The notes under the pieces: generated by a model
What the model saw: the letters and a program-made list of their open reading frames with translations, nothing else
What the model was told of the DNA's origin: nothing
The model's database searches: none
Program-made: the position numbers and the translations under genes
Source of the DNA: a bacterium
GTDB lineage: Bacteria > Sysuimicrobiota > Sysuimicrobiia > Sysuimicrobiales > Segetimicrobiaceae
Reading direction: 5' to 3'
DNA length: 64,000 bases
NCBI GenBank assembly: GCA_035945995.1
Contig: DASYZR010000120.1
Location: 927 to 64,926 of the forward strand
Part shown: positions 5,006 to 24,368 of the stretch, piece after piece
Layout of the letters: each line of letters opens with the position of its first letter
How positions within the stretch are numbered: position 1 is the first letter of the stretch

Positions 5006-5175
5006 ACAGCGACCTCGTCGCTGCGCCGAACGCCGCCGAGAGCAGCGTGATTCCCCGGCTCCTCAATGAAGGTCCGCGACAGGCGCTGCGCCACGCCGCC
5101 TACGAGCAGGGGTTGTTCGGGTCTTTGTGCCGGCGCAACGCAGATGCCGGGAACAACGGCGACGTCGCGGCGGAC

Positions 5176-6210
5176 TCAGTGGAGATGCGCCACCGGATGC
5201 CATATCTCGGCGAAGACGCCAAGGCCGACCAGCACCACCAAGACCGCCGTGCCCGCCGCCAGCGCGCGCCGCCGGCCTCTCCATCCCGGTCTGCGCTCAC
5301 GATCCAGGATCGGGACGGCGAGCAGCCAAAGGAAGAACACCAACGCGCCCCACAGGCCCTGCAGCCCAAACAGATTCTCCAGCCCGTACAAGGGCAGGAG
5401 GAGCCATGGTGGCTTTGTCACCTCGATGCCCGCGACGGGAGCGGCGCCTTCGCCGGGCGGCATGATGACCCCCAGCGCGAGCGCGAGGCCGAGCATGATG
5501 CCGCCGTACCCGGCCGCCTTCTTGAGGTGGTGGGCAAACGTGTACCGGGGCTCCGCCGCCGCGGGCCGGGTCAGGTGCGGCGAGATCCCGTGCTGTCGGA
5601 CCAGGTAGACGTGAGCCGTGAGCAAGATGAAGAGCACAAGCGGGAGCAGGCTCACGTGCGCCATGTACAATCGGGTCAGGAGCGGGACGTGACTCGAAAA
5701 TGTAGGCGAAAACCAACCGCCGAATATGCCCAGCAACGCGGTGAACGCGACGTTGTGCTCGAGCGCTTCGGCCGCCTCCTGGTCCCATCGCAGCACGGTC
5801 CCGGTGTAGAACAAAGCCAGCATCGTCGCGAGCAGCGCGACGCCCACAACCCAGTTGGCCTCGCGCGGGAACCGGTAGGCGCCGGTTGCGTAGACGCGCA
5901 TCAGATGCAGGAGCAGCACCACCATGGTCAGATGCGAGGCCCAGATGTGGATGCCGCGGATCGCCTCGCCGCCGGGGACTTGGGCGATAATGATCCGGAT
6001 GCTCTGGTTCGCGGCGCCGGGATCCGGAGCGTAGAACTGGCCGAGAAGGATACCGCTGGCAACCAGGATCACCAAGCCCGCGAGCGTGACCGCGCCCAGG
6101 ACGTACGGGAACGTGTTGGCGTAGGCAGGGACTTCGTAGAGGAAGTTGTGGAGCACCAGCCGCGCATCCAGCGCGACCCACAACCGCCTTACACGTGAAG
6201 GAGAACTCAT
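5176..6210 (-). CDS. cytochrome b (b6 plus subunit-IV type, single polypeptide)
   Basis: His pairs GIHIWASHLTMVVLLLH and AHVSLLPLVLFILLTAH have b6-type spacing. YRFPRE motif present. ATG 6210 overlaps the upstream stop (ATGA). The track ORF N-terminus (6211..6270) is rejected. Confidence 0.9.
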   Translation of the reverse strand: MSSPSRVRRLWVALDARLVLHNFLYEVPAYANTFPYVLGAVTLAGLVILVASGILLGQFYAPDPGAANQSIRIIIAQVPGGEAIRGIHIWASHLTMVVLLLHLMRVYATGAYRFPREANWVVGVALLATMLALFYTGTVLRWDQEAAEALEHNVAFTALLGIFGGWFSPTFSSHVPLLTRLYMAHVSLLPLVLFILLTAHVYLVRQHGISPHLTRPAAAEPRYTFAHHLKKAAGYGGIMLGLALALGVIMPPGEGAAPVAGIEVTKPPWLLLPLYGLENLFGLQGLWGALVFFLWLLAVPILDRERRPGWRGRRRALAAGTAVLVVLVGLGVFAEIWHPVAHLH

Positions 6211-6677
6211 CCGCGCACGACGAGTACCCCGGCCAGGGCCAGCAGCGCGGCGGCAGCCAGCAGGGCGCACGCGCTCGGCGTGGCGGCGAAGCGCGGCCGG
6301 ACGGGGATGAGGAGCGTCATGTCGATTCTCGCGGAGCCGGCTTGCGCGGGGCGCAGAGCGTCCATGAGGTCGGCCGCCGCGCCCGTGGGGTTCTCCTCGC
6401 CGAGCGCGTGGGCCGCGTTCTCCACACGGCTCATGTCCACTCCGCGCCGATCGGGTGCGAGCAGCGCCAGAATGACCTGTCGCGTGGCCGCGTCAAGGTC
6501 GGGCGGGGTGACCTCCAGGGCGGCCAACGCCCGGCGGACCAGGGTGAGCGCATCCTGAGGATTGGCTCCGGCCTCACCGGACCCAGATCCCGAAAGGGCC
6601 GCCAGGCCGAGAATGAGGGCGGCCGCGGCCGCCCCAGCGGCGGCCACTACCGTGGGGCGGCCCGGCGCCGCGTGCAT
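6207..6677 (-). CDS. hypothetical membrane-anchored protein (N- and C-terminal TM helices)
   Basis: 156-aa ORF translationally coupled (ATGA) to cytochrome b. TM helices at both ends, Ala/Leu-rich helical middle. No family recognised. Confidence 0.6.
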   Translation of the reverse strand: MHAAPGRPTVVAAAGAAAAALILGLAALSGSGSGEAGANPQDALTLVRRALAALEVTPPDLDAATRQVILALLAPDRRGVDMSRVENAAHALGEENPTGAAADLMDALRPAQAGSARIDMTLLIPVRPRFAATPSACALLAAAALLALAGVLVVRG

Positions 6678-6686
6678 GAAAAGGGA

Positions 6687-7421
6687 CTAGAGGACCACTA
6701 CGAACCCCTGCATCGCGATCGGAAAGTGAGGGGCGCCCTTCTTGGCCGCCGCCAGTCCGAATTTCGGGTTATACGTCGCGCTGCCCTCGTCGTAGAAAAA
6801 GTAGATTCCGGGGGTGGCAAACGTCACCGAGTGGCTCTTCCCGGCCGCGAGATCGAATTTGGGCCGGCCGGCCTGGACGAGTACCGGCGTGTGGGTGCGC
6901 GTGTCATCGTTGACCCAAGTCACCTTCCCTCCGGCGCGCACCACGGCGACGTCCGGGCCGTAGGCGCCTCCGGAGATCGTGACGGTTGCGGCGGGTGCGC
7001 CCGTGAAGCCGGGACCTTTGACCACAATCAGTCCTTCCATGGCCAAGGGGAACGCATCGGATTCTTTCCTGGCGGCGACCCGCCGGCTCGCGGTGTTGAA
7101 TGTCGCGTGATCCAGGCAGTAGTACGGGTACACCCCGGGCTTGGTGAATTTGAATGACACCGGCTTCCCGGGCGCATGGACGAGCGTGAACGCCTGGGGC
7201 GTCCCGGGGACGGTCGTGGTGACGTGCGGGTCGGAATCTTTGTTGATCCATGTGACGGTCTGCCCCGCCTCGATCATGACGGCCGCGGGGGCATAGTTAT
7301 CTCCCGGGATTGTGACCAGAACCCCGGCGGCGGCCTGGACCGCCCCGCGGTGGATGAGTGGACTGAGCATCGCCGCGCCCGCAAACAACAGAACCGCGAT
7401 CGTCGTGTACACTCGCCGCAT
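6687..7421 (-). CDS. secreted tandem cupredoxin (plastocyanin/amicyanin-like) protein
   Basis: Signal peptide MRRVYTTIAVLLFAGAAM. Domain 1 has type-1 Cu ligands: DPH ... YYCLDH ... AMEG. Domain 2 is a paralogous repeat lacking the Cys and the second His (FFYDEGS ... AMQG). GGGAGG RBS. Confidence 0.85.
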   Translation of the reverse strand: MRRVYTTIAVLLFAGAAMLSPLIHRGAVQAAAGVLVTIPGDNYAPAAVMIEAGQTVTWINKDSDPHVTTTVPGTPQAFTLVHAPGKPVSFKFTKPGVYPYYCLDHATFNTASRRVAARKESDAFPLAMEGLIVVKGPGFTGAPAATVTISGGAYGPDVAVVRAGGKVTWVNDDTRTHTPVLVQAGRPKFDLAAGKSHSVTFATPGIYFFYDEGSATYNPKFGLAAAKKGAPHFPIAMQGFVVVL

Positions 7422-7451
7422 CCTCTGCGCCTCCCTGGTGTCTCGGACCGA

Positions 7452-8798
7452 CTACAGAACTGCGAACGACAACAGAGACGGGGCCCGTGGCACTACGGGC
7501 TCGTCGCCGCACGGCAGTATTACGTCAATGCGTGTTCCCGCTCCTGGAAGGGTGGACGCGCTCACCTGCCCGCCGATGGCGGCGGCTCGCTCCCGCATGG
7601 CGAACACCCCGATGGCCCGCCCCTCGCCGCCGTGCGGGCTCATCGCGGGTTCGAACCTTGCGCCGTTGTCGGTGACCATGGCGCGCACGGTCAAACCGGC
7701 GCGCGCGATGGTCACCCCGACCCGGGTGGCGCCGGCATGTTTGGCGATGTCCGTGAGGGACTCCTGGAGGATGCGAAAGAGCACCACTTCCACCTTCGGC
7801 GGCAGGCGCGTCGCGAGGCCGTCGGTTTCAATGTCGACCGATATCCCGGCCGGTCTCAGTACCCGGTGCGCGTGAGCGGAAATGGCGGCCAGGAGCCCGA
7901 GCTCGTCGAGAAGCGTGGGCCGCAGGTCGCTGACGATCGCACGGATCTGGTCCAAGGTCTTCTCAGCCACGCTCCGTATGTACGCGATCTGCCGGGTCGT
8001 CTCCGCGGGCGCCTCGGCGAGGAACGGTTCGGTGCCATCCAGCGACATGATGAAGGCGGACAGCATCTGTCCGATCTCCTCGTGGAGCGCCCGGCAGATC
8101 CACCGGCGTTCGTCCTCCTGCGTGGTGAACACCCGCGCCAGCAGCGTCCCGCGCACGGTGTTGAGCAACGTCAGTTCGCGAACCCGTTGATTGGCGCGCA
8201 ACACGATCCCGGTCCCAAAGAGCAGCGTGAACACGCCCGACGCCAGCGCTCCCGGCAGCGGGGCCACCGGCCGCAAGAGCGGGTAATCCAACGCATGCAG
8301 ACCGGTGAAGACGAGCCCCCAGAAGAGAAGGACCGTTCCCCACTGCCGCACGCCGCGCTCGGCCTGCCGGAGGAAGTACGCCGAGGCGAGGAACGCGGCC
8401 GCCGCGAAGACCGACGGGGGCCACACCGTGATCCACCAGGTCCCGGCACCCGCGCCGAGTGCCGACGCCGCAAGCACGAACACGGCGGCTCCGCCCGCAC
8501 CGGCCAGCAGTTGGCGCCGTGTCAGCCCCCGCCACGCCGCGGCCACGCTCGAGAGCATCACCAGCGAGGCCGCGACGAATGCCGTGTTCCGGGCGAAGAA
8601 GAGCCAGGGCTGCGCCGTGCGCATCGCCGCCGCTTCGGCCACGACGTGCAGCGTGAACAGGACATAGGCGCCCGTCCACCACAGCACAATCCGCTCGCGG
8701 CTCTCGAGGTAACGCAGGAACAACAACAGCGTCACCGCGGCGTGGGCGCCGATCCCCAGGGCCAGCCAGTCGAGCGTCTCGATCGATACCGTCGGCAT
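7452..8798 (-). CDS. sensor histidine kinase, polytopic membrane N-terminus plus HisKA_3 plus HATPase_c
   Basis: H-box QEDERRWICRALHEEIGQMLSAF. ATPase boxes ILQESLTDIAKHA, DNGARFEP, GVFAMRERAAAIGG. About 6 N-terminal TM helices. Confidence 0.9.
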   Translation of the reverse strand: MPTVSIETLDWLALGIGAHAAVTLLLFLRYLESRERIVLWWTGAYVLFTLHVVAEAAAMRTAQPWLFFARNTAFVAASLVMLSSVAAAWRGLTRRQLLAGAGGAAVFVLAASALGAGAGTWWITVWPPSVFAAAAFLASAYFLRQAERGVRQWGTVLLFWGLVFTGLHALDYPLLRPVAPLPGALASGVFTLLFGTGIVLRANQRVRELTLLNTVRGTLLARVFTTQEDERRWICRALHEEIGQMLSAFIMSLDGTEPFLAEAPAETTRQIAYIRSVAEKTLDQIRAIVSDLRPTLLDELGLLAAISAHAHRVLRPAGISVDIETDGLATRLPPKVEVVLFRILQESLTDIAKHAGATRVGVTIARAGLTVRAMVTDNGARFEPAMSPHGGEGRAIGVFAMRERAAAIGGQVSASTLPGAGTRIDVILPCGDEPVVPRAPSLLSFAVL

Positions 8799-9716: not shown

Positions 9717-10361
9717 CTAGGACAGTTTCTGCTTGGCGGCCAGCGCCGCGGCCGCCGCGCGCCGCTGCACGTGCAGCTTGCCGAGCAGGGTGCTGACATA
9801 GTTCTTGACCGTCTTCTCGCTCAGGTGCAGCGCGGCGGCGATCTCTCGATTGGTCTTCCCGTCCCCGACCAGCGCCAGCACGCGGCGCTCCTGTTCCGTC
9901 AGCGCCGCGACGGGATCGCCGCCGGTCCCGGCCAGGCGCCTGAAGCGCGCGAGGAGTTGATGGGTGACCGTGGGATCGAGCAGCGATTCCCCGGCGGCCA
10001 CGACCTCAATCGCATGGATCAGCTCCGCGCTGCGGGTCTGCTTCAGCAGGTAGCCCGACGCTCCGGCCATCACGGAGGCATCGACGGCTTCCTCATCCGC
10101 AAACGACGTGAGCATCAGCACGCGGGTGTCGGGTCGCGCCGACCGGATCTCCCTGCAGGCTTCGACGCCGCTTCCATCCGGGAGGCGCACGTCCATGATC
10201 ACCACGTCGGGCGCCGCCCGCGCCGCCTCCTCCACCGCGGCCGCCGCGGTCGAGGCTTCGCCGACGATCGTCATATTGGACCGGTGCCCCAGCAGCATCC
10301 GGAGCCCGGCCCGCACCACTTCGTGGTCATCCACCAGCAGGATGCGCAGCGGCTTCTCCAT
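9717..10361 (-). CDS. NarL/FixJ-family response regulator
   Basis: MEKPLRILLVDDHEVVRAGL...VVIMDVRLPDGSG...LTSF...GYLLK. HTH LTEQERRVLALVGDGKTNREIAAALHLSEKTVKNYVSTLL. GGAGG RBS. The start overlaps the kinase 3' end. Confidence 0.95.
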   Translation of the reverse strand: MEKPLRILLVDDHEVVRAGLRMLLGHRSNMTIVGEASTAAAAVEEAARAAPDVVIMDVRLPDGSGVEACREIRSARPDTRVLMLTSFADEEAVDASVMAGASGYLLKQTRSAELIHAIEVVAAGESLLDPTVTHQLLARFRRLAGTGGDPVAALTEQERRVLALVGDGKTNREIAAALHLSEKTVKNYVSTLLGKLHVQRRAAAAALAAKQKLS

Positions 10362-12630
10362 GGTGCACCTCCACCTGCGCGCGGGTCGGCCGTGGGACAG
10401 AGACTTCGACCGTTGTCCCCGCGTCCGGGGCGGCCGTAACCCGAAGCCGCCCCCCGATCGCGCGGGCCCGTTCGGCCATACTGCCGAGGCCGAGGCCGTA
10501 GCGCGACGACAGCCCGGCAGGATCGAATCCACAACCGTCGTCCCGCACCCGGAGCGTGAGCGTGTCGTCTGCCGCGGACGCGTGGACGGTCACGCGTGCG
10601 GCCTGCGCGTGGCGGGCGGCGTTCGCGAGCGCTTCGCGAACGATGAGGATCAGTTGATTCCGCATCTCGTTGGGCAGCGCCGGCACTGCGTCGGCGCCTT
10701 CGAGGTCCAGGGTGACGGGGAGCCGGGAGTGCTCCTGGAACTCTCCGGCAACGGCCTCCAGAGCCGTCCGGAAGGTCCGCTCGGCCGTCTCGGGTGGACG
10801 AAGGTTGTGAACGTAGCCGCGAATCTCCTGAATGATGCGGGTGTGGATATCCAGCGTCTCGGCCAGCCGCCGCTTGGCGTCACCCGGGTCTTCGTCGATC
10901 AGTCCGGCGGCGTATTCCAGCGCAAGGTCGACGCCGTACAGGGCCTGCATCGTATTGTCATGGAGATCACGGCTGATGCGATCCCGCTCGCTGAGCACGG
11001 CAAGTTGTTGCACCTGCTGGTGCAGCTCGTTGCTCCGGACGGCCAGGGCGGCCAGGGCGGCGAGCGCGGAGAGCAGATTGGTGTCGTCCGGCGTCACGCG
11101 GCGGGGCGTGCTGCTGGCTACGCACAGTGTTCCAAGGGTGCGATCGCCGATTTGCACAGGTGCGACGGCGTGCGCGCGGTTGTAGCGGGCGTCGACAAAT
11201 GGACACGTGTGGCCCGTGGAGCACACTAACGGGTCTCCCTGCGCCAGGCCGCCGGAGCCGTTGGAATGCTCCGGCAGCCGCGCGTCGGGCGGTCCGCTCA
11301 ACTCCCCGAGCACGATGGGGCCGCCGTGTTCGGTGAACAGGCATAGCGCGCCGACCTCCATGTGGAGCAAGCGCCGCGCGTGCTCGGCGATGGCCGCGAG
11401 GATCGTCTGGAGGTCGGTGAGCGCCAGAATCTCGCGGCTGACGGCGTACAGTGCCTGCGCCTCGTGCTCGCGCCGGGCCCGTTCCGCGAGCGACGTCTTC
11501 AGGCGGTCGCGCATCGTATCGTAGGCGTCGGCCAGGCTGCCGATCTCATCGTGTCGATCAACCCGCACCACCGTCTCGAGGTCGCCGCCGGCGATGCGCT
11601 GTGCCGCGCCGGCCAGGAGCCGCAGCGGCCGCACTACGGTGCCGGTGTCCCACCACGCGAACAAGAGGGCCAGGATCAGGGCGGTCGTGCCGATCAAGAG
11701 ATTACGGTTCCGCACCGCGACGATCGGGGCAAAGGTTTCGGCTTGAGTCTGCCCCACACTCACCCCCCACGCCGTCTGATACAGCGGGGCAAAGGCCATG
11801 ATGTGGTATCCGTGGACCTGCCCTCCTTCGACCACCGCGGCGCGGCCGACCCCCGCCCGATGGCCGGCCATGAGCGCGTGATGGAACAGAGGGTGTTCGT
11901 TGGCCTGGAAGGCCTCGGCGTCTTCGGTGGTGGCCAGAACCTCTCCGTGCGCATCGATGATCAGCGCGTGCCACGTGGTGCCCGGCCGGCGCGTCGCGCT
12001 GTACTCCGTAATGTAGGGCAAGAGCTGCTGCCGGCGAAGGTCGACGGCGGCGCACAGTCCTCCGGCACGAATCGGCAATGGCACACAGAGCAGGACGGCT
12101 GGGACCCGGCCGGCACCCAGGACCTCGAGATTCGATGCCGCCGCGGGCGCGCCGCCGAGAACTTTCCCCAGGGCCGCATCGTTCCGGAAATTGATCGCAA
12201 AATCCCCCGGATGGGCGGGTTCCGCGATTCTGAGGCGCCCTGTCGCATCCACGAGGTAGAAGCCGTACGAAGCAAGCGCAATTTGGGACCGCATCTGACG
12301 AAGCAGTTCCCGTTGGCGGTCCGCGGCGGCGCCCGAAGCAGCCATTGCCGGCGAAGACGCAAGCGCCTGCAACTGCCGGAAGGATTGAGCCAGCGTTCCG
12401 TCCAGGAGCTCCGCCGTAGCCTGCGCTGATCGGAGCCGCTCTTGGAGTAGCTGGTCGGTCAACTGCCGTGCCATCTGGTAGCTGTCAACGCCCATGACGA
12501 CCAGCAGAACCAGAATGCCGACGGCGACGACCACCATGATTCGCGCCCGCAGGCTTCGCCCAGAAGACCACCCGCGCGCTGTGTCGGCGATCCGCTGTCT
12601 CCACGCAAACCCGTGGTGAGGCGCGTCCAT
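10327..12630 (-). CDS. sensor histidine kinase: extracytoplasmic sensor domain, HAMP, GAF, HisKA_3, HATPase_c
   Basis: TM, then a ~270-aa periplasmic region, then TM. HAMP RIAGGDLETVVRVDRHDEIGSLADAYDTM. GAF-like 150 aa. H-box ERDRISRDLHDNTMQALYG. REALANAARHA, DDGCGFD, GLGLGSMAERA. Confidence 0.95.
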   Translation of the reverse strand: MDAPHHGFAWRQRIADTARGWSSGRSLRARIMVVVAVGILVLLVVMGVDSYQMARQLTDQLLQERLRSAQATAELLDGTLAQSFRQLQALASSPAMAASGAAADRQRELLRQMRSQIALASYGFYLVDATGRLRIAEPAHPGDFAINFRNDAALGKVLGGAPAAASNLEVLGAGRVPAVLLCVPLPIRAGGLCAAVDLRRQQLLPYITEYSATRRPGTTWHALIIDAHGEVLATTEDAEAFQANEHPLFHHALMAGHRAGVGRAAVVEGGQVHGYHIMAFAPLYQTAWGVSVGQTQAETFAPIVAVRNRNLLIGTTALILALLFAWWDTGTVVRPLRLLAGAAQRIAGGDLETVVRVDRHDEIGSLADAYDTMRDRLKTSLAERARREHEAQALYAVSREILALTDLQTILAAIAEHARRLLHMEVGALCLFTEHGGPIVLGELSGPPDARLPEHSNGSGGLAQGDPLVCSTGHTCPFVDARYNRAHAVAPVQIGDRTLGTLCVASSTPRRVTPDDTNLLSALAALAALAVRSNELHQQVQQLAVLSERDRISRDLHDNTMQALYGVDLALEYAAGLIDEDPGDAKRRLAETLDIHTRIIQEIRGYVHNLRPPETAERTFRTALEAVAGEFQEHSRLPVTLDLEGADAVPALPNEMRNQLILIVREALANAARHAQAARVTVHASAADDTLTLRVRDDGCGFDPAGLSSRYGLGLGSMAERARAIGGRLRVTAAPDAGTTVEVSVPRPTRAQVEVHHGEAAAHPAGG

Positions 12631-16971: not shown

Positions 16972-18711
16972 GTGGCGGCGGCCACCGCCATCATTCTCAC
17001 CGTGTTTGCCTTTATCGCGTTCCGGGCCGTTCAAGAGAGCACGTCGACCGTGCTGCAGCAGCGGCTGCAGGTCGGGACCGCGCTTGCCGACCGGATTGCC
17101 GCCACCCTTACGGGTTACCGAAACGAGCTGGAAGATCTCGGGTGGGAACTATCTCAGGAAAGTGCGCCCGAACGTCGCGCCGCGGTCCTCGAAGACTCCG
17201 AGTGGGCCCGCAGGTTTTCCGCGCTCGCGATCATTGGCCCGGACGGCCGCGTGATCTGGTCCCAGCCGGCATCGTGGTTTGCCTCGATGCGGCGAGGTCT
17301 CCCCCTGGCGGTTTTGACGGCAGCGTCCGGTGGCGCGGCCGTGCTTCCTCCCCTCGCCATAGCGCCGAACGTGCATCTGACGGCCCTCGCCGTCCCTCTC
17401 GCCGATCGCGGCGTTCTTCTGGGCGCCGTGGACCTCGAACGCCTTGCCCTCAGGGGCATCTTCGACGGCCCAGTGGGGGCATCGTTCGACTTCGAAATCA
17501 TGGACGCGCAGGGCATCGTCCGCGCGTCGGCCGTCCTCGCCGAGGTCGGGCGGCCGAGCGAGCATCTCCCCATCCTCGCCCCGGTGGTTCGGCCGGGAAG
17601 GCAGGCCATTGTGTACCACAACGTTCCACGGCGCCCGCACTACGTCGTGTACACACCGCTCGCCGAGTACCCGGGGTGGTCGGTCAACTTCGAGGAGCCC
17701 AGCGACGTTGTGCTCTCGCTGCCGCATGCGCTTCGCAACGGCCTGCTCGCGCTCGGAGCCGTTATCATGGTAGGGATGTCCACTCTGGCCTTTTTCGACA
17801 CAAAGGGCATGCTGCGGCCGCTCGCCCGGCTGCGGAAGGCGGCGGAGCATATCGCCGGCGGCAATCTGGACGACACCGTGGACGTCGAACGCCGCGACGA
17901 GGTCGGCGCGCTCGCGCAGGCTTTCGAGGCGATGCGGGTGAAGCTGCGCGCCTCGCGTGACGAGATCGCCGCCTGGAACCGCGAACTCGAGGACCGGGTC
18001 GCCAGCCGCACGCGGGAGCTCAGCGCGGCCCATGCCCTGCGCCGCCAGCTCCTCGAACGGATCGTGCTCGCCCACGAGGAAGAGCGCCGCCGAATTGCCC
18101 GAGAGCTGCACGACGAGATCGGCCAGGGCTTGACCGCCCTCGTGATGCAGCTCGGAACGGCGGAGGGCGCCCTGGAGCCCGACGCGGATGGGATCCGGCC
18201 GCAGCTCCAGGCCGTCCGCGAACAGACCTCCGAGATGATCGAGAACGTCCGGCGGCTCATGCTGGACCTGCGCCCGGCGGTCCTGGACGATCTCGGGCTC
18301 GTCCCGGCCATTCGCTGGTACGCCGAATCCCATCTGCCTGCGGCCGGCATCGACGCCCAAGTGTCGATCTCGGGCCTCGACGAGCACGAGCGGCTCCCGC
18401 GGCGCCTCGAACTGGTGGCGTTCCGTCTCGCGCAGGAGGCTGTCACGAACGTGATCCGCCACGCGCAGGCCAGGCGCGCCGTCATTTCCTTGGCGCGCGT
18501 GGCGGGCGGGCTCGAGATCTCGGTCGAGGACGACGGCCGCGGCTTCGACCCGGAGGCGGCGCCCCCCACCGGACGCCGCGGGTGGGGCCTCGCCGGGATG
18601 CGGGAGCGGGTCGCCCTGCTCGGCGGCACGCTGTCCGTCACGTCCCACCCGGGGTGCGGCACGCGCGTCGCGGCCAGGATCCCCGTCGAGGAGACGCCGG
18701 ATGCCGATTAG
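16972..18711 (+). CDS. sensor histidine kinase (periplasmic domain, HAMP, HisKA_3, HATPase_c); N-terminus uncertain
   Basis: HAMP LRKAAEHIAGGNLDDTVDVERRDEVGALAQAFEAM. H-box EEERRRIARELHDEIGQGLTAL. EAVTNVIRHA, DDGRGFD, GWGLAGMRERV. The upstream in-frame sequence RSLGLQARITLS looks like genuine N-terminus but has no canonical start codon. Confidence 0.9.
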   Translation: MAAATAIILTVFAFIAFRAVQESTSTVLQQRLQVGTALADRIAATLTGYRNELEDLGWELSQESAPERRAAVLEDSEWARRFSALAIIGPDGRVIWSQPASWFASMRRGLPLAVLTAASGGAAVLPPLAIAPNVHLTALAVPLADRGVLLGAVDLERLALRGIFDGPVGASFDFEIMDAQGIVRASAVLAEVGRPSEHLPILAPVVRPGRQAIVYHNVPRRPHYVVYTPLAEYPGWSVNFEEPSDVVLSLPHALRNGLLALGAVIMVGMSTLAFFDTKGMLRPLARLRKAAEHIAGGNLDDTVDVERRDEVGALAQAFEAMRVKLRASRDEIAAWNRELEDRVASRTRELSAAHALRRQLLERIVLAHEEERRRIARELHDEIGQGLTALVMQLGTAEGALEPDADGIRPQLQAVREQTSEMIENVRRLMLDLRPAVLDDLGLVPAIRWYAESHLPAAGIDAQVSISGLDEHERLPRRLELVAFRLAQEAVTNVIRHAQARRAVISLARVAGGLEISVEDDGRGFDPEAAPPTGRRGWGLAGMRERVALLGGTLSVTSHPGCGTRVAARIPVEETPDAD

Positions 18712-19363
18712 GGTGCTGGTCGCCGACGACCATCGGATCGTCCGCGCGGGAATCCGGTCGTTTCTGGAGGGCCAGCGGGACATCGCCGTCGTGGGGGAAG
18801 CCGGCACGGGCGAAGAGGCGTTGGCGATGGCCCAAACGCTGCGGCCGGACGTGACGGTCATGGATCTCAATATGCCGGGAATGGGCGGGCTCGAGGCCAT
18901 TCGCCGTATCAAAGGCGAAATCGCGGAGGTCCACGTCGTCGCGCTGACCATGCACGCGGACCAGCGGTTCTTTCTCGAGGCCCTCGCCGCCGGCGCCGAA
19001 GGCTACGTGCTCAAAGGCGCCGACCCGGCGCAGTTGCTGGCCGCGGTGCGCGCGGCGGCGGCGGGCACCGCGTATCTGACGCCGGAACAGGCAAAGCGCA
19101 TGCTCACCGAATACCGCCGCGCCGGCGAACGCCAGGCCGAGGGAGCCGGCGCCGGGCTCACCGCGCGCGAGCGCGAAGTGCTCACGCTCATCGCCGAGGG
19201 GCTGACCGGCAAGGCGATCGCCGAGCAGCTCTGCCTGAGCCCCAACACGGTCGAGCGCCACCGCACCAACATCATGAACAAGCTCGGCCTGCACAACCGC
19301 GCGGAGCTTGTGCGGTTCGCCATCCGCGAGCGGTTGATCGACGACGAGCCGCCGTCCCCGTAA
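18701..19363 (+). CDS. NarL/FixJ-family response regulator
   Basis: MPIRVLVADDHRIVRAG...VTVMDLNMPGMGG...LTMH...GYVLK. HTH LTAREREVLTLIAEGLTGKAIAEQLCLSPNTVERHRTNIMNKL. Confidence 0.95.
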   Translation: MPIRVLVADDHRIVRAGIRSFLEGQRDIAVVGEAGTGEEALAMAQTLRPDVTVMDLNMPGMGGLEAIRRIKGEIAEVHVVALTMHADQRFFLEALAAGAEGYVLKGADPAQLLAAVRAAAAGTAYLTPEQAKRMLTEYRRAGERQAEGAGAGLTAREREVLTLIAEGLTGKAIAEQLCLSPNTVERHRTNIMNKLGLHNRAELVRFAIRERLIDDEPPSP

Positions 19364-19384: not shown

Positions 19385-20422
19385 TCAACCCTGCGGCGGA
19401 GCGGGGTCACGGCGCAGGGCCAGCACCAGCCCGCACGCCAGCGCAAGCGCAAGCCCGGCGGCCACAATTCCGGGCAGGCGGTCGACAACCACCGGCAGTC
19501 CGTCGACGCGCACCGACACCGCGCCTCCGGCAGACACGGGGCCGCCGGACCACCGCCCGTAGTGGCGCCCGCGTTCCGCAACGATACCGCCGGCACGCAG
19601 TGCCGTACCGGACACCCGGATGTTCGGGTCCGCCAGGAGCTCCAGGTCGGTCGCGCCGTAGGGGAACTCCCACCCCAGCGTCGCCGACCGGGAGCGCGGC
19701 TCAACCCCGAACGCGTACGCGACCTGTGTGGCGCCGGGCATCACGGGGATCGCATCCGTAATCGTGCGGTCTCGAATGTGCGGATTGCGCCATCCGTCGA
19801 CGAACTCGACCGGCTCGGCCGCCCGCGGCGCCGGGGACACCAGCGGCAACGGGAACACGAGGGGATCCCGGTCCGTCACCGCCACGACTCGATCGGTCGC
19901 GTTGTGGAGCTGCTGGATCACGCTCACGCGAAGTGCGTCGTGCACGAGCTCGAGGACGACGAATACCACCGTCCCGTGCACGGCGGCCCGGTCGGGCGTA
20001 GCGGCGAATACGGACAGCGGCACGTTGCGCACGGGGGCGGCGGCGGTCAGGACGATCCGGGCGGTATACGGAACTCCGCCGTATTCCACGTGCACCACGA
20101 ACACCCGAGGTCCGCCGCCGACCGGTAGGCCGGGGAACGCGAAGCGGCCCTGAGCGTCAGTCGTCGTGACCCGCGTCGAGCTGAAGGCGGGCTCGACGAT
20201 CTCGAGACGCACCGCCCGCCCCGCCACCGGGTGCGCCGGAGCTGTTTGATCTGCCACGCTGCCCCGGATCTCGCCGACCATACCCGCGGCGTACGCGGTG
20301 GTGCCGGTGCCGAGCGCGGCACAGACGATGAACGCGGCCCAGGAGCGCGCGGCCCGGCTAGAACGCCCACCAGGTGAACAAGAGAAGGTTGTTGTTGTCG
20401 TTCGCGTTGCGTCCGAACCCAT
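19385..20422 (-). CDS. CarboxypepD_reg-like domain protein with signal peptide and C-terminal TM anchor
   Basis: RSWAAFIVCAALGTGTTAYA signal. GEIRGSVADQ...GRAVRLEIV...TTTDAQGRFAFPGLPVGG...VVHVEYGGVPY matches the carboxypeptidase-regulatory fold pattern. C-terminal GIVAAGLALALACGLVLAL. The only canonical start (ATG 20422) overlaps the upstream gene by 65 nt. Confidence 0.7.
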   Translation of the reverse strand: MGSDATRTTTTTFSCSPGGRSSRAARSWAAFIVCAALGTGTTAYAAGMVGEIRGSVADQTAPAHPVAGRAVRLEIVEPAFSSTRVTTTDAQGRFAFPGLPVGGGPRVFVVHVEYGGVPYTARIVLTAAAPVRNVPLSVFAATPDRAAVHGTVVFVVLELVHDALRVSVIQQLHNATDRVVAVTDRDPLVFPLPLVSPAPRAAEPVEFVDGWRNPHIRDRTITDAIPVMPGATQVAYAFGVEPRSRSATLGWEFPYGATDLELLADPNIRVSGTALRAGGIVAERGRHYGRWSGGPVSAGGAVSVRVDGLPVVVDRLPGIVAAGLALALACGLVLALRRDPAPPQG

Positions 20423-21818
20423 CGTAATTGGTCGTCCCGCCGTTGAACTTCAGATAATAAGTATACTGCAGTGCGATCCGCACATTGAGCCATGGGTAGC
20501 CCGCGTGGGTGGTGTCGTTGCCAAAGGGCGTCCAATCGATTTGCGCAACGATCGCCTGCGAATTCGGGTATCCGTTTGCGCTCCCGGTCAGCGACGCGGG
20601 CGCGTACAGCGTCGGGTCCGCACTTCCAAAGGTGCTGGCATAGGCCAGCGTGACTCCATAGGTGTTGCGCCAGTAATAGGCCGCGGCGATGCGGAACTGC
20701 GTCAGATCGTTGGAAAGATTGCTGGACAGGCCCGCCGCGTTGGACGCCGTCAGTGTTTGCGTCTCAAACAGGATATTGCTGGTAATCGCGAGGGTGTCCG
20801 GCCCGAAGGTATGCTGGTACGTGGCGTCGAGACCCCAATCGATGTACCGATTTTGGTCCGACGGGGTTACGGCGCCCGGGACTTGCTGGAGCGGGATGTC
20901 CATGTACACCCCGCCGACTTCGAGGAAGTTGCTGCCCCACGAGTGCTGGTAGGCGAGCCGGAAATACGGGGCGGTGCCGGAAATGACTCCCAGGCTCGAC
21001 GGACTGATGTTCATGGTGCTGAGCGTACTCGCGCTCCATGATTGGTAGAGCCCGCCTTCGATATAGAGCTTGTTGTCGTACAAGGCCGACAGACTCAGGC
21101 CATATACCGTCGTACCGAGGGCACTGATCGCCGGGCTCGCGCTCGGCGCAGGCCCGATGAACGGCGTCAAATACGGGAACTGAAAGCCATTGTACAGCGA
21201 GTTGTAGGGATCGCTCCCCGACGGCGTATTCGTGAGATCGAACCCCAGCAAGAGCGAGTGATTCCCGATCGTCAACGGTTTCGTGAGCCGAAGATCCGAC
21301 GTGGCTTCTACCGCGGTGACCGATCCCCCGGGGACGCCGCTGAACCCAATTTGTTCAAATCCGCCGATGCCAAACTTGCCGTTGAACGAATACCCGCCCG
21401 TGATAAAGATGCCGCTGCCGCTCCCCAGGAGATTGAAAAAGTTATTCGTGCCGTACCCTGCGGGCGCCGCCGGCAGGGCCTTCGCGTCGATTTGGAGGCT
21501 CGGTGTAACGAGGATGTTGATCGGAATATTCGCCCAGGGGCCGGTGCCGCCACGCCAGGTATATCCGTTCGCTCTGAAAGCGATACCGAACGGCGTCAGT
21601 TGCGGCCCGAACCCGCCGATGTGGCAGGCGCTGCACGGTGCCCCTGTTTGTCCGGCGAAACTCGGCAGGGCATCGGCGCGCGGAGTCCACCAGAACGCGA
21701 TGGCGAGCGCCAGGATACCGAAGACCGCGGCGCGCAGGCCGCCAACCACACGCACCACGTCGATGGAAAGCGCGCCCCGCGTCCTCAGGCACAAGCCACG
21801 TCCCGACCTGCTCGCCAC
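20358..21818 (-). CDS. fused monoheme cytochrome c / outer-membrane beta-barrel porin, Cyc2-like
   Basis: Signal peptide GLRAAVFGILALAIAFWWTPRADA, then LPSFAGQTGAPCSACH (single CxxCH), then FGPQLTPFGIAFRANGY. About 430 aa rich in G/Y/T/S/N with alternating hydrophobicity. C-terminal LLLFTWWAF (terminal Phe OMP signature). Start options: GTG 21818 (GAGGGGGGA RBS), ATG 21887, GTG 21758. Confidence 0.75.
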   Translation of the reverse strand: MASRSGRGLCLRTRGALSIDVVRVVGGLRAAVFGILALAIAFWWTPRADALPSFAGQTGAPCSACHIGGFGPQLTPFGIAFRANGYTWRGGTGPWANIPINILVTPSLQIDAKALPAAPAGYGTNNFFNLLGSGSGIFITGGYSFNGKFGIGGFEQIGFSGVPGGSVTAVEATSDLRLTKPLTIGNHSLLLGFDLTNTPSGSDPYNSLYNGFQFPYLTPFIGPAPSASPAISALGTTVYGLSLSALYDNKLYIEGGLYQSWSASTLSTMNISPSSLGVISGTAPYFRLAYQHSWGSNFLEVGGVYMDIPLQQVPGAVTPSDQNRYIDWGLDATYQHTFGPDTLAITSNILFETQTLTASNAAGLSSNLSNDLTQFRIAAAYYWRNTYGVTLAYASTFGSADPTLYAPASLTGSANGYPNSQAIVAQIDWTPFGNDTTHAGYPWLNVRIALQYTYYLKFNGGTTNYDGFGRNANDNNNLLLFTWWAF

Positions 21819-21962
21819 CCCTGTTCCCCCCTCTTCTCGTCGTGCTCTCACGACCGCGCGCTCTTTTCTCGCCCCGGTCCGCGGCACGCCGAGCCCCGTT
21901 CTGAATTTCCGATTTTCGTCCCTGGACTCCTCCGGCCGGCGGGACCCGTCCGGTCTCGGCCG

Positions 21963-22421
21963 CTAGGGAGGCGTCACGATTAATCGTCCGAACATCGTCG
22001 CGTGCCGCACCCCGCAGTAGGTCGTGCACATGTACAGGTATGTGCCGGGTTTGGGAGCGGTCACCGTCAGCTCGATCGATTTCCCCGGAATCAGTTCGGT
22101 GACTTGCGCGTCCAGACCCAGGATTTTGAACCCATGCACGACGTCCTCCGACTCGAGCCGGATCCGGAGCGGCACCCCCGCGGTCGCGTGCAGAACGTTC
22201 GGCGCGTACTGCCACTGGGTCGCGTGGACCACGACCACGTGACGATCCATCCACCGGCCGTACGCGAACACCGTGGCCGGCCCCACCACGAGCACCGCCG
22301 CGGCGACGCCGAGCGCGGCCAGTTCACCCGCTCCGACCGCGCGGACGCGCGCCGCCGCCGCCCGCACCGCGGCCAGCGTGCGTCGTCCCCGTGTCGATAG
22401 GGCGTTCACGTGGGTTCGCAT
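21963..22421 (-). CDS. membrane-anchored CuA-type cupredoxin (cytochrome oxidase subunit II-like domain, no partner subunit I)
   Basis: N-terminal TM LAALGVAAAVLVVGPATVFA. DVVHGF ... CTTYCGVRHATM fits H...C-x3-C-G-x2-H-x2-M, the binuclear CuA ligand pattern. AGGAGG RBS. Confidence 0.8.
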   Translation of the reverse strand: MRTHVNALSTRGRRTLAAVRAAAARVRAVGAGELAALGVAAAVLVVGPATVFAYGRWMDRHVVVVHATQWQYAPNVLHATAGVPLRIRLESEDVVHGFKILGLDAQVTELIPGKSIELTVTAPKPGTYLYMCTTYCGVRHATMFGRLIVTPP

Positions 22422-22431
22422 CTTGGGCCTC

Positions 22432-23910
22432 CTATCCCACGAACAGCCAGAGGAATGCCGCCGTAATCCCGCCGAGCAGCACGATCTGCGGCATCACCGC
22501 GCGGGCCGCCGCGGCCGGCGCGGGAAACGTCTGCCGGGCGATCTTCCAGGCCACGTCGAGCGAATACACGAACCCGAAGAGGAGGGCCGCGGCCTGCAGC
22601 GCCGGCAGCCAGCTCGTGAGGATCGGCGTCCAGGCGAAATGCGCGGTCCCGAAGAGATTCCAGCCCCAGCCGAAGGGGTCGGAGATGATCCGCAGCACGT
22701 ACGACCCGTTCGGCAGCAGGATCGCGAAGCTGAACCCGATCCACGCCAGCAGCCCGATCGGCACCAGGTGATAGGCGAAGTTCGTGAACACGCGGCGAAA
22801 CGGCACGGTGCGCCCCGCAAGCCGCCAGGACAACCAGGCGGAGGCGCCGTGCAGCGCCGGCAGCACGCCGGCCAGGACCGTGACGAGCCCCGCGGCAAAC
22901 AACGCCCACCCGCCGAGCGACCGGAGGTTCGCCCAGTCCTTGAGCGTGCCCCACGGCCCCATCATCGTCGCCGAGTAGACGGCCGCCGCGCCGAGCATGA
23001 TGAACGCCTTCCACGACTCGTCGAGACCGCGGTGCGACTCCACCAGGAGATCCGTCCCGAACGGGCGGACGTACAGACCCATGTTGTCATGCGAGCAGCA
23101 GCGGAAACATTCGAGGCAGAGCCCGCAGTAGGTGTTGCGTTTCAGGCTGGTCGGCTGCTCGAGCCACGGGCAGCCGTGGCCCGCGGCGCTGCCGAGGATG
23201 CACTCCTTGGACTTGTGGCCGACGCAGACCGGCGTGCTCTTCGGCCGGATCTCCAGCGCCGCGAAATTAGCGTACAGGCCGAGGAAGCCCCCGACCGGAC
23301 AGAGGTAGCGGCAGAACGTCCGCCGCTCGTAGACGAGGAAAAGGCCCGTGCCCAGGACCATGATCGAGCCCAGGAGCGCCACGGTCGCCCACGGCCGCGT
23401 CGTGATGATCCCGCTGAACGCCGCGACGCCCAGAAACACGCCGTTCACGAGCCACATGCTGCGCAGCTTCTTGGGCCATTTCAGCGACAGGCCGAGCGGC
23501 CGGCGCCAGCTGCGCCGGACGAGGGAGAGGCGCTGCAGCCACTCGCCCAGCACGGGCAGGGGGCACATCCCGCACCAGAGGCGGGACGCGAACGGGACGA
23601 GCACCAGCATCAGCGCCGACCACCACAGGATCCAAATGAACACGATCGCGATGTTCGCGTTGCCCACAGGCGTGCCGACGATGCCGGCGGCGAGGATGAC
23701 CAGGAACAGGAAGAGGTTCAGCGCGGTCGGCAGGAAGGTCGTCCAGCGGCTTCGCAGCAGGCGGCGCAGCCACGGCGCCTTCGTCAGCTCGAGACGCGCG
23801 TCCACGGGCACGAGGCCGAGGAAGACGTCGCGCGGTCGGGCGTTGCCGGCCGCGGTTCCGCCGGCCACGGCCGTCGCGGTGTCCGCCGCCACCCGATCCA
23901 CCGCACTCAT
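22432..23910 (-). CDS. polytopic 4Fe-4S (NapH/MauN/CcoG-like polyferredoxin) membrane protein with an extra C-terminal 5-TM domain
   Basis: WCGMCP and FCRYLCPVGG membrane Cys motifs. Soluble Cys-rich loop CVGHKSKEC...GHGCPW...YCGLCLECFRCC. About 10 TM helices. ATG 23910 overlaps the upstream stop (ATGA). The track ORF N-terminal 53 aa are rejected. Confidence 0.8.
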   Translation of the reverse strand: MSAVDRVAADTATAVAGGTAAGNARPRDVFLGLVPVDARLELTKAPWLRRLLRSRWTTFLPTALNLFLFLVILAAGIVGTPVGNANIAIVFIWILWWSALMLVLVPFASRLWCGMCPLPVLGEWLQRLSLVRRSWRRPLGLSLKWPKKLRSMWLVNGVFLGVAAFSGIITTRPWATVALLGSIMVLGTGLFLVYERRTFCRYLCPVGGFLGLYANFAALEIRPKSTPVCVGHKSKECILGSAAGHGCPWLEQPTSLKRNTYCGLCLECFRCCSHDNMGLYVRPFGTDLLVESHRGLDESWKAFIMLGAAAVYSATMMGPWGTLKDWANLRSLGGWALFAAGLVTVLAGVLPALHGASAWLSWRLAGRTVPFRRVFTNFAYHLVPIGLLAWIGFSFAILLPNGSYVLRIISDPFGWGWNLFGTAHFAWTPILTSWLPALQAAALLFGFVYSLDVAWKIARQTFPAPAAAARAVMPQIVLLGGITAAFLWLFVG

Positions 23911-24368
23911 GGCTTCCGTCCCTCCTCCCACGCGGCGTAGAGCACCGTGGCGCCGATCGTGCCGAGCGCCAGCAGACCCAGCCGCAGCGTGACATTGGGC
24001 TGAACGCGCAGCCAGCCGATCATGTACGGATGGAACGGTCCGCACGTGACCGCGCACCGGAACATCCATCGTCCGCTCCGCGTCGCCACGAACCGCGCGG
24101 TGACCGTTTGGCCGGGCACCACGGTTTCGGTGACGTTGTAGCCGTCGAGGTAGAATCCATGGGTCACGTCGTCGGCCTTGATGATCAGGGTGACCGGGTC
24201 ACCCTCGTTCACGGTCACGATGCCCGGCGTATACCGCCACTGCGACGCGGTGAGCGTAATCGTCCGCGGGTGCGGTAGCGGCGACGCGCCCAGGCGCACC
24301 ACGAAGACGCCGGCCGCGAGGAGCACCGCGCCCGCCACCACGACCAGATATCGTCGGCCTCTTATCAT
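23907..24368 (-). CDS. CuA-type cupredoxin with N- and C-terminal TM helices
   Basis: ATG 24368 follows GGGAGG. YLVVVAGAVLLAAGVFVV. DVTHGF ... CAVTCGPFHPYM (C-x3-C-G-x2-H-x2-M). C-terminal LRLGLLALGTIGATVLYAAW. Confidence 0.8.
   Translation of the reverse strand: MIRGRRYLVVVAGAVLLAAGVFVVRLGASPLPHPRTITLTASQWRYTPGIVTVNEGDPVTLIIKADDVTHGFYLDGYNVTETVVPGQTVTARFVATRSGRWMFRCAVTCGPFHPYMIGWLRVQPNVTLRLGLLALGTIGATVLYAAWEEGRKP

Follow-up and report, generated by a model that had tools for sequence, protein, structure and literature searches.

A NapH-related polyferredoxin flanked by two CuA-type cupredoxins: a portable gene triad adjoining sulfocyanin-like and Cyc2-type genes in a Segetimicrobiaceae genome

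Introduction

The stretch of DNA analysed here (hereafter the window) comprises 64,000 nucleotides from a bacterium of the Segetimicrobiaceae (Sysuimicrobiota; NCBI GenBank assembly GCA_035945995.1, contig DASYZR010000120.1, positions 927 to 64,926). On its minus strand, a polyferredoxin related to NapH, with nine transmembrane (TM) helices, is flanked by two small proteins, CupU (upstream) and CupD (downstream), which by their sequences are membrane-anchored CuA-type cupredoxins. Our analysis shows that this triad keeps its gene order across bacterial and archaeal phyla, and comparison of the sequences indicates that CupU and CupD are separate ancient orthologous classes. The partner genes of the triad change from locus to locus; in the window it shares an operon with genes for a sulfocyanin-like copper protein and a Cyc2-type cytochrome-porin. 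Our preferred reading, which we hold tentatively and at somewhat less than an even chance, is that the three proteins would form one membrane electron-transfer complex with outward electron flow, wired in this organism to an envelope-spanning iron-redox chain.

To our knowledge, CuA centres occur in very few enzyme types. NapH-like membrane iron-sulphur (Fe-S) proteins are common and their mechanism is obscure. The gene set itself is not new. Arshad et al. (2015) described the nar operon of Candidatus Methanoperedens as NarG, NarH, NarJ, Orf7, HCO II, NapH (9 TM) and HCO II, in which the HCO II-NapH-HCO II genes are MPEBLZ_02039-02041; all genes of the operon were highly transcribed, and an unusual membrane-bound nitrate-reducing complex was proposed (PMC4683180). 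A paper of 2026 still names NarGH, NapH, HCOIIa,b and Orf7 by annotation only (PMC13079737). Our literature search returned no paper treating the module outside Methanoperedens. Searches on polyferredoxins with cupredoxins, on PCYCGC proteins and on the anammox nxr genes kustd1709-1713 returned nothing relevant, and the module is not among the genes listed for the Kuenenia nxr cluster. What is new here is the portable distribution of the triad across two domains of life, its composition of two CuA subunit classes, the diversity of its partners and fusions, and its coupling to sulfocyanin-like and Cyc2-type genes in the clade of the window.

Results

CupU and CupD are CuA-type cupredoxins by sequence

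CupU consists of an N-terminal TM helix, a periplasmic CuA domain and a C-terminal TM helix, while CupD has a single N-terminal TM anchor followed by its periplasmic CuA domain; the positive-inside rule puts both copper domains outward. CupU carries the motifs DDVTH70GF and C105AVTCGPFHPYM116, with predicted ligands H70, C105, C109, H113 and M116. The corresponding motifs of CupD are EDVVH96GF and C132TTYCGVRHATM143, with predicted ligands H96, C132, C136, H140 and M143. Among all six-frame open reading frames (ORFs) of the window, the pattern C-x3-C-x3-H-x2-M is found in these two proteins only.

Both proteins score above the Pfam cut-offs for COX2 (PF00116; 30.7 bits for CupD and 29.7 bits for CupU, cut-off 22) and for Cupredoxin_1 (37.8 and 31.1 bits, respectively, cut-off 27). 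Their closest solved relatives are the CuA domain of the Thermus thermophilus ba3 oxidase (2CUA/1EHK_B) and engineered versions of it, matched over the whole domain with E-values of 1e-11 to 1e-17; NosZ CuA domains rank second, and a Foldseek search with the model of a fusion homologue agrees with these relatives. The residues H70/H96, C105/C132, C109/C136, H113/H140 and M116/M143 align to ba3 H114, C149, C153, H157 and M160, and the His-to-Cys spacing of 35-36 residues is that of the ba3 domain. An earlier reading of the window, made from the letters alone (hereafter the sequence-only reading), had recognised the ligand spacing of a CuA centre in both proteins and proposed comparison with COX2 and NosZ; in that comparison all ligands fall in register. 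Neither protein is a CoxB equivalog, as the NCBIfam model (TIGR02866) gives 54.1 for CupD and 38 for CupU against a cut-off of 147.7.

The polyferredoxin combines a NapH-like core with a five-helix extension

TM helices 1-4 and the cytoplasmic Fe-S domain of the polyferredoxin are homologous to NapH and are followed by a C-terminal extension of five TM helices. The protein matches Pfam Fer4_5 and scores 22.3 with the NCBIfam NapH/MauN model (TIGR02163) against a cut-off of 213. An hhalign comparison of a 21-member family profile with residues 101-280 of Escherichia coli NapH gave a probability of 94.9% and an E-value of 4.6e-8 and superposed both Cys-x(2-3)-Cys-Pro motifs as well as the Fe-S motifs: the C113 motif aligns to the first CX3CP of NapH and the C200 motif to its WCGHICP. 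Taken together, these scores point to homology at the superfamily level only. The NapH sequence stops where the five additional helices start, in agreement with the extra C-terminal domain that the sequence-only reading had described. That reading had also called the protein NapH/CcoG-like. The NapH half of this label stands and the CcoG half does not, since no NCBIfam CcoG model is matched at E<=0.01 and no Pfam FixG_C domain is found in the polyferredoxin.

The Fe-S loop departs from NapH in its first motif, C229-x2-H232-x4-C237-x9-C247P, which replaces the CxxCxxCxxxCP of NapH; the second motif, C262-x2-C265-x2-C268-x3-C272 (CGLCLECFRCC), is canonical. In the family alignment all 11 motif cysteines are invariant, H232 is nearly invariant and TM2 is rich in Trp. 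By the positive-inside rule, counts of Lys and Arg assign a cytoplasmic location to the N-terminus, the membrane-edge Cys motifs and the Fe-S loop. The loop of residues 401-429 has a Lys plus Arg count of 1, consistent with a location outside, and holds a set of invariant columns (N401, S403, Y404, S410, D411, P412, G416, W417, G421, T422, A423, W427 and P429); we infer a candidate surface here at which the CuA domains could dock or exchange electrons. The short motifs quoted in the sequence-only reading, namely DDVTHGF with CAVTCGPFHPYM, EDVVHGF with CTTYCGVRHATM, WCGMCP, FCRYLCP and CGLCLECFRCC, are all present where it had placed them.

An AlphaFold2 (AF2) model of a natural fusion of CupU to the polyferredoxin (P0061) reaches a predicted local distance difference test score (pLDDT) of 86 and a predicted template modelling score (pTM) of 0.86, and its helix pattern fits a cupredoxin between two TM helices followed by nine TM helices. 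No sequence in the PDB matches the polyferredoxin profile even at E<=1. Among the 50 matches listed, a Foldseek search with the fusion model gave cupredoxins only and no analogue of the membrane part.

The triad is widespread and its two cupredoxins form faithful classes

Searches with the polyferredoxin gave more than 2249 matches in a database clustered at 90% identity, 624 clusters at 50% identity whose representative matches at E<=1e-30, and 561 confirmed places in species-representative genomes. The nearest named relative in these searches belongs to a metagenome-assembled genome (MAG) of the Armatimonadota, with 83% identity. Hosts among the 80 best genome loci comprise Armatimonadota, Symbiobacteriaceae and other Bacillota, many Chloroflexota, Planctomycetota including Brocadiaceae, Omnitrophota, Spirochaetes, Actinomycetota (Hakubella), Acidobacteriota, Gemmatimonadota, Rokubacteria and archaea.

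The search for orthologous triads that the sequence-only reading had called for recovered it in all 91 loci covered. In 73 of them the polyferredoxin is preceded by a cupredoxin with the full CuA motif, in 11 such a cupredoxin is fused to it, and in 75 one follows downstream, the rest being mostly contig ends; the complete CuA ligand motif is kept in about 160 flanking cupredoxins. The nearest neighbour from another locus always belongs to the protein's own class (78 of 78 for CupU, 68 of 68 for CupD). Identity is 46% within the CupU class and 40% within the CupD class against 29% between them, and a C-terminal TM helix is present in 64 of 67 upstream copies versus none of 68 downstream copies. 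In 19 of 68 loci the CupD class carries a C-terminal cytochrome c tail. Two cupredoxin classes that keep so faithfully to their places are the signature of a conserved heteromeric complex.

Partner genes and domain fusions

Partner genes were counted in the 68 groups that remained after dereplication of the loci at 90% identity. In 26 of these, an operon for a periplasmic type II enzyme of the DMSO reductase family lies immediately upstream of the triad. It encodes a NarG/NxrA-like alpha subunit of about 1160 amino acids (aa), an Fe-S beta subunit, a NarJ-like chaperone and an EB_dh haem-b gamma subunit, the last fused to CupU in 8 of the 26 groups. NosZ is encoded 1-1.5 kb downstream of the triad in 2 of the 68 groups, with E-values of 1e-81 and 1e-94 to solved NosZ: in a Fidelibacterota MAG (L024, 3579-5480), with Sco1 and an extra cupredoxin in between, and in a Chloroflexota MAG (L086, 12812-14869). 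This position of NosZ suggests that the module can substitute for NosR or NosGH. Sco1 itself adjoins the triad in 7 of the 68 groups, 5 of them in a Nar context, which fits genuine CuA sites that need copper insertion.

The remaining 42 groups have no molybdoenzyme or EB_dh context. CupD is fused to cytochrome c in 18 of them (e.g. L089), and 7 have a type-1 copper protein as a neighbour (L088, L010, L030). Two-component genes are frequent: a response regulator is found next to the triad in 31 of the 68 groups, 28 of which belong to the 42, and all 21 groups with a kinase do. Further neighbours in the 42 are a PCYCGC protein (20 groups), DUF1573 (12), an HMA P-type ATPase (6) and thioredoxin-like or DsbD proteins. 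No homologue of CyoB/COX1 was found in 90 related loci amounting to 1.4 Mb.

Fusions inform on topology and on the electron path. In three relatives (P0261, P0262, P0274) a GltD-like NAD(P)H flavoprotein (Fer4_20 plus Pyr_redox_2) is inserted in the Fe-S loop, and two of the three also have an N-terminal thioredoxin-like or cupredoxin domain. The insertion confirms the cytoplasmic location of the loop independently of Lys and Arg counts, and by implication the route of electrons from the cytoplasm to the copper domain in the periplasm passes through the Fe-S clusters. From their domain content, these three proteins look like self-contained exporters of electrons from NAD(P)H to the periplasm. 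Two proteins of about 850 aa (P0371, P0386) have an N-terminal multihaem Cytochrome_C554 domain in place of the cupredoxin, so the periplasmic output domain of the scaffold is interchangeable, copper or haem. Some relatives (P0063, P0261) fuse a thioredoxin-like domain with the cupredoxin and the polyferredoxin. A DsbD-like thiol-disulfide relay via the membrane Cys pairs, an idea that came from these thioredoxin-like fusions, was rejected as an explanation of its own, as it leaves the conserved Fe-S motifs and the CuA sites unexplained; we retain it only within the alternative of copper handling and maturation discussed below.

Two further arrangements were seen. In L089 (6538-10450) and about 20 other Chloroflexota loci, the genes run PCYCGC, CupU, DUF1573/113-aa protein, polyferredoxin and CupD-cytochrome c fusion, often with a two-component system and an HMA P-type ATPase alongside; we know of no function for PCYCGC or DUF1573. 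In L037 (8565-9437) and L068 (8740-9564), an EB_dh-type haem-b protein is encoded directly upstream of the triad, with no molybdopterin subunit in the 8-10 kb of available upstream sequence, and it may be a stand-alone partner.

A sulfocyanin-like and a Cyc2-type gene frame the triad in the window

The operon of the window reaches beyond the three genes that the sequence-only reading had noted: a sulfocyanin-like gene lies upstream, and Cyc2-type and CarboxypepD_reg-like genes lie downstream. The sulfocyanin-like protein has a signal or anchor segment and the type-1 ligand pattern H...C-x4-H-x4-M (CGVSGHAVAGM). It matches Pfam SoxE at 7.9e-22 (77.8 bits, cut-off 21) and rusticyanin at 4e-8; with the NCBIfam sulfocyanin model it reaches 80.3 bits against an equivalog cut-off of 168.4 and is therefore called sulfocyanin-like and not an equivalog. 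Its orthologues hold the same position in L002, L008 and L009, as do those of the Cyc2-type gene.

The Cyc2-type protein comprises 478-509 aa. Its N-terminal sequence is ALPSFAGQTGAPCSACHIGGFGPQL, its signal peptide ends in ...PRADA, and the mature protein starts with LPSFAGQTGAPCSACHIGGFGPQL and ends in ...WWAF, with Phe as the last residue; its composition is rich in Asn, Tyr and Gly. There is a single CXXCH, preceded by AxPxFA(G)QT and followed by PQL. For Keffer et al. (2021), a Cyc2 has AXPXFAR[Q/K][T/Y] ahead of its haem site and PXL behind it, is at least 365 aa long and contains a 16-strand porin like OprO/OprP (PMC8406198). The protein of the window has a signal peptide, a single CXXCH, more than 365 aa, the PXL and a predicted barrel of about 16 strands. 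AF2 models it (pLDDT 72.7) as a beta-barrel with some 16-18 strands, for which Foldseek returned 16-strand porins including OprO (4RJW) and OprP (2O4V). We call the protein Cyc2-type because of the signal peptide, the CXXCH, the PXL, the barrel model and the porin fold matches. Source annotations of this Cyc2-like family read only 'cytochrome C' or 'hypothetical'.

The combination of the triad with the sulfocyanin-like and the Cyc2-type gene was found only in the clade of the window (window/L001, L002/L003, L008 and L009). The surroundings of two distant Cyc2-like homologues (Acidibrevibacterium, L093; and L094) gave no further clue. With 0.61 overall and 0.78 at third codon positions (GC3), the GC content of the Cyc2-type gene is lower than that of its operon neighbours (0.67-0.72, GC3 0.83-0.93); the amino-acid composition of a porin or a more recent acquisition could account for this. 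Near the triad of a Symbiobacteriaceae locus (L088, 1594-3018), a protein of 474 aa without a Pfam match has the size of a porin-cytochrome and lacks the Cyc2 motif; its gene adjoins those for a cytochrome c, a cupredoxin and a thioredoxin-like protein.

Gene order and genomic surroundings

The triad lies in a tight minus-strand run of six co-directional genes (window 24978 to 19385; Table 1). The stop codon of CupU overlaps the start codon of the polyferredoxin as ATGA, which is the coupling that had been noted from the letters alone; the gap between the polyferredoxin and CupD is 10 nt, and the remaining intergenic gaps are at most about 170 nt. A scan of the run for promoters and terminators gave no signal above chance. 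The last gene of the run is variable, being absent from the orthologous locus L002 (gene calls from L001 and L002). The kinase and regulator pair that converges on the run adjoins the operon in L002/L003 too.

Table 1. Features of the operon, of the adjoining two-component system and of a second redox cluster (window coordinates)
Feature	Position	Strand	Remarks
Sulfocyanin-like type-1 copper protein, 178 aa	24442..24978	-	First gene of operon; Pfam SoxE
CupU, upstream CuA-type cupredoxin, 153 aa	23907..24368	-	ATG 24368, TGA 23907
CupU CuA loop CAVTCGPFHPYM	24021..24056	-	Aligned to T. thermophilus ba3 subunit II
NapH-related polyferredoxin, 9 TM, 492 aa	22432..23910	-	ATG 23910, TAG 22432; Pfam Fer4_5
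First membrane-edge Cys motif of polyferredoxin, C113-G-M-C116-P	23560..23574	-	Invariant in family alignment
Second membrane-edge Cys motif of polyferredoxin, C200-R-Y-L-C204-P	23296..23313	-	Invariant in family alignment
Cytoplasmic Fe-S loop of polyferredoxin	23095..23226	-	Invariant Cys; positive-inside rule
TM7-TM8 outward loop of polyferredoxin, residues 401-429	22624..22710	-	Invariant columns
CupD, downstream CuA-type cupredoxin, 152 aa	21963..22421	-	ATG 22421, TAG 21963
CupD CuA loop CTTYCGVRHATM	21993..22028	-	Aligned to ba3 CuA domain
Cyc2-type fused monohaem cytochrome-porin	20358..21887	-	Start codon uncertain (21794-21887)
CarboxypepD_reg-like protein, C-terminal TM helix	19385..20281	-	Last gene of run; Pfam 1.3e-6, below gathering score
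Convergent NarL-type two-component system	16972..19363	+	HAMP/HisKA_3 kinase 16972-18711; LuxR-type response regulator 18701-19363
LuxR-type regulator	4373-5005	-	Second redox cluster
Cytochrome b, 364 aa	5176-6270	-	Second redox cluster
ORF without assignment, 156 aa	6207-6677	-	Second redox cluster
Two-domain plastocyanin/cupredoxin-like protein	6687-7421	-	Second redox cluster
HisKA_3 kinase	7452-8798	-	Second redox cluster

The ORFs of the window were scanned with Pfam; the gaps left unscanned are too short for COX1 or NosZ. Within this scope, neither a haem-copper oxidase subunit I (COX1) nor NosZ is encoded in any scanned ORF, and a seeded phmmer search of all window ORFs found no Sco1. 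PCuAC did not appear in the Pfam scans either, a less certain absence as several short ORFs were unscanned. The sequence-only reading had listed all four as missing. Also missing from the window are homologues of the molybdopterin subunit, the FeS-beta subunit, NarJ and EB_dh, homologues of NapG, NapA, NapB and NapC, a PCYCGC protein and a P-type ATPase.

Elsewhere in the window, a Rieske protein (55500-56048, minus strand) overlaps a 597-aa cytochrome b (54109-55902) that ends in a cytochrome c domain. The two make up a complex of the bc type with a b/c fusion, so the organism also has conventional quinol-oxidising complexes. The second small redox cluster (4373-8798, minus strand) contains a two-domain cupredoxin with 60% identity to the gene directly upstream of the triad in an Armatimonadota MAG (L010); because of this homologue, it may be a further partner of the module. 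A span of 12 kb contains at least three two-component systems of the NarL type (HisKA_3/LuxR; 7452-8798, 9717-12630 and 16972-19363). In the second of these, the ORF of a kinase with Cache, HAMP and GAF domains (10327-12630) shares about 200 nt with that of the response regulator (9717-10532), an overlap that points to an ambiguous start codon.

Discussion

Proposed mechanism

In the mechanism that we propose, the NapH-related polyferredoxin would be the core of the complex, with one or two Fe-S clusters and the two membrane-edge Cys motifs on the cytoplasmic side. CupU and CupD, non-equivalent in this arrangement, would be anchored beside it in the periplasm, and the five-helix extension would present the outward loop. 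Electrons would enter at the Fe-S side, from the membrane quinol pool or from a cytoplasmic reductant, and the CuA centres would pass them to a high-potential periplasmic partner supplied by the operon. Such a complex would resemble NapGH, NosR or NosGH, with CuA domains replacing NapG or the FMN domain. For the window, the chain would run from the polyferredoxin through CuA (CupU/CupD) to the sulfocyanin-like shuttle and the Cyc2-type porin-cytochrome, and on to dissolved extracellular iron or a similar metal ion. In this outward mode the module would act as a quinol- or reductant-oxidising donor that stands in for bc1, with an acceptor such as Fe(III) in acidic soil.

The sequence-only reading had offered two possibilities, a quinol:CuA electron-transfer module and a CcoG-like cupric reductase with copper-domain partners. 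Comparison favours the electron transfer of the first, by the linkage to Nar/EB_dh operons in 26 of 68 groups, by the fusions, by the NosZ loci and by transcription in Methanoperedens; quinol as the donor is only a possible part of it, and we know of no quinone-site motif in the polyferredoxin.

Direction of electron flow

Outward direction is the weakest step of our explanation, and we would rate it, like the mechanism as a whole, as possible but short of probable. It is favoured because the Nar enzyme of Methanoperedens, NosZ and the NAD(P)H-flavoprotein fusions all point outward, and because redox potential and membrane field do so as well. Several observations weigh against our reading. 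No trans-bilayer cofactor is evident, as the family alignment shows no conserved TM His pairs for haem; the trans-bilayer electron path of NapH and NosR is equally unexplained. Carriers at about +200 to +300 mV reduce high-potential acceptors only. The Cyc2 association occurs in just 1 of the 68 dereplicated groups. The Cyc2 motif of the window reads ALPSFAGQT, with Gly where the published consensus has Arg, and Acidibrevibacterium homologues (about 43% identity) carry AVPAFARQT. PCYCGC proteins, HMA P-type ATPases, thioredoxin-like proteins and DsbD recur near the triad in Chloroflexota and Bacillota, where a context of copper homeostasis is possible; these copper-handling neighbours are better read as CuA maturation factors.

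Precedent speaks for the opposite direction, which is the alternative that fares best, unlikely as we consider it. Every Cyc2 protein with biochemical validation oxidises Fe(II), and for Cyc2 and rusticyanin to run in reverse is no more than a proposal, made for Acidithiobacillus ferrooxidans under anaerobic conditions. On this alternative, Cyc2 would oxidise Fe(II) and the sulfocyanin-like protein would hand the electrons via CuA to the polyferredoxin and then to quinone or a cytoplasmic acceptor, an 'uphill' branch like the reverse bc1 of Acidithiobacillus. A motif close to that of Cyc2, the haem site and a predicted porin are present here, and the protein encoded first in the operon is similar to sulfocyanin as well as to rusticyanin. 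CuA domains of oxidases take electrons from cupredoxins and cytochromes c, as is well established. Moreover, some triads adjoin Nxr-like enzymes in Brocadiaceae (L026, L036), for which inward flow has long been postulated. However, carriers at about +0.2 to +0.3 V would have to reduce quinone or cytoplasmic Fe-S clusters uphill and against the membrane potential, and no coupling element was identified. Flow is outward for the partners of known direction, Methanoperedens Nar and NosZ, and the NAD(P)H-flavoprotein insertion implies the same. Neither the operon nor the window contains a terminal oxidase, and the separate Rieske/cytochrome b complexes could serve an uphill route.

Copper handling and operon remnants as alternatives

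We regard a role in copper handling as improbable. The polyferredoxin would then be a CcoG-like cupric reductase or an exporter of reductant, and the cupredoxins would deliver copper to cuproenzymes, for instance to the sulfocyanin-like protein. CcoG does belong to the Fer4_5 family, and the module always lies beside copper proteins; groups without a molybdoenzyme have PCYCGC proteins (20 of 42), HMA P-type ATPases (6), Sco1, thioredoxin-like and DsbD_TM proteins as neighbours, and thioredoxin-like domains are fused to the cupredoxin and the polyferredoxin (P0063, P0261). Yet the missing CcoG and FixG_C signals disfavour the cupric reductase, as does the full conservation of both CuA ligand sets: a binuclear ligand set that is complete in about 160 sequences is typical of electron-transfer sites and not of chaperones. 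Copper delivery hardly accounts for fusions to EB_dh, cytochrome c and flavoprotein domains or for tight operon linkage to NarGHJ and NosZ, none of the copper-handling genes named above is found in the window, and the Methanoperedens genes are transcribed at Nar-like levels (PMC4683180).

That the cupredoxins are remnants of CoxB or of the NosZ CuA domain in a split or degenerate operon, with CoxA or NosZ elsewhere and the polyferredoxin as a NosR/NapH-type accessory, is essentially excluded: the best PDB matches are indeed oxidase subunit II and the NosZ CuA domain and NosZ lies downstream in two loci, but bacterial and archaeal phyla alike keep the order of the triad, its two cupredoxin classes and the fusions, the CoxB equivalog scores (54 for CupD, 38 for CupU, against 147.7) and the layout with one or two TM helices are unlike CoxB, and a constant company of coxA or nosZ, which the sequence-only reading had named as fatal to its own interpretation, is not seen, coxA being found in no locus (90 loci, 1.4 Mb) and nosZ in 2 of 68 groups.

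Significance

Returning to outward electron transfer, the wider picture would be that CupU, the polyferredoxin and CupD represent a third widespread class of CuA respiratory complex next to haem-copper oxidases and N2O reductase, with the role of a complex III and with partners interchangeable among periplasmic nitrate/nitrite molybdoenzymes, NosZ, cytochromes c and blue copper proteins; in the soil lineage of the window, its link to a Cyc2 porin-cytochrome would open a minimal route, so far unrecognised, for extracellular iron redox reactions. We put the chances of this only just below even. The module would be a candidate for the missing membrane link of periplasmic Nar/Nxr-type enzymes and for the electron donor to some NosZ enzymes. 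In the window, it is a candidate for the link of a Cyc2 and blue-copper chain to the inner membrane with no oxidase or bc1 borne on the operon. There is also a consequence for marker-based annotation: a Cyc2 or sulfocyanin match in this setting need not mean classical Fe(II) oxidation, and a COX2 match need not mean an oxidase.

Comparison with known systems

The closest counterpart is the Methanoperedens module, which shares with the window the gene order, the nine-helix NapH-like protein with its five-helix extension, and flanking cupredoxins that match the CupU and CupD classes. Along its whole length, the polyferredoxin of the window shares 47-51% identity with the Methanoperedens proteins (L016, L027, L045) and thus belongs to their orthologous family. 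The differences lie in the surroundings and the host: the Methanoperedens module follows NarG-NarH-NarJ-Orf7, whereas the window has no molybdoenzyme or EB_dh, its triad is framed by the sulfocyanin-like and Cyc2-type genes, and its host is a bacterium.

With NapGH of E. coli and Wolinella, the window protein has in common a homologous membrane core and the proposed role of supplying a periplasmic partner with electrons drawn from the membrane pool. It differs from NapH in having nine TM helices instead of four and an altered first Fe-S motif, and a pair of CuA cupredoxins takes the place of the poly-[4Fe-4S] protein NapG. NapH-like proteins are known as modular transmembrane electron-transfer units, FMN-bearing systems included (Méheust et al. 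2021, PMC8238504). NosR/NosGH and these systems likewise use a NapH-like Fe-S membrane protein to link membrane or cytosolic electrons to extracytosolic oxidoreductases, and in NosR/NosGH the path also ends at a CuA centre, that of NosZ. The window module, in contrast, has no FMN-binding domain or ApbE, brings its own CuA centres and carries the five-helix extension.

The CuA domains themselves are closest to subunit II of ba3, a B-family haem-copper oxidase, which is the top match in sequence and fold and shares the CuA ligands and the His-to-Cys spacing; CupU differs from it in the extra C-terminal TM helix, and no subunit I accompanies the cupredoxins in the window or the 90 loci. As to the outer part of the chain, the Acidithiobacillus Cyc2/rusticyanin system and the Cyc2 of neutrophilic iron oxidisers (PMC8406198) offer the nearest parallel, with a cytochrome-porin and an operon that also encodes blue copper and CuA proteins. 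Unlike the Acidithiobacillus chain, the operon of the window has no cytochrome c4/Cyc1 or CoxA, and its inner-membrane part is the CuA-polyferredoxin module.

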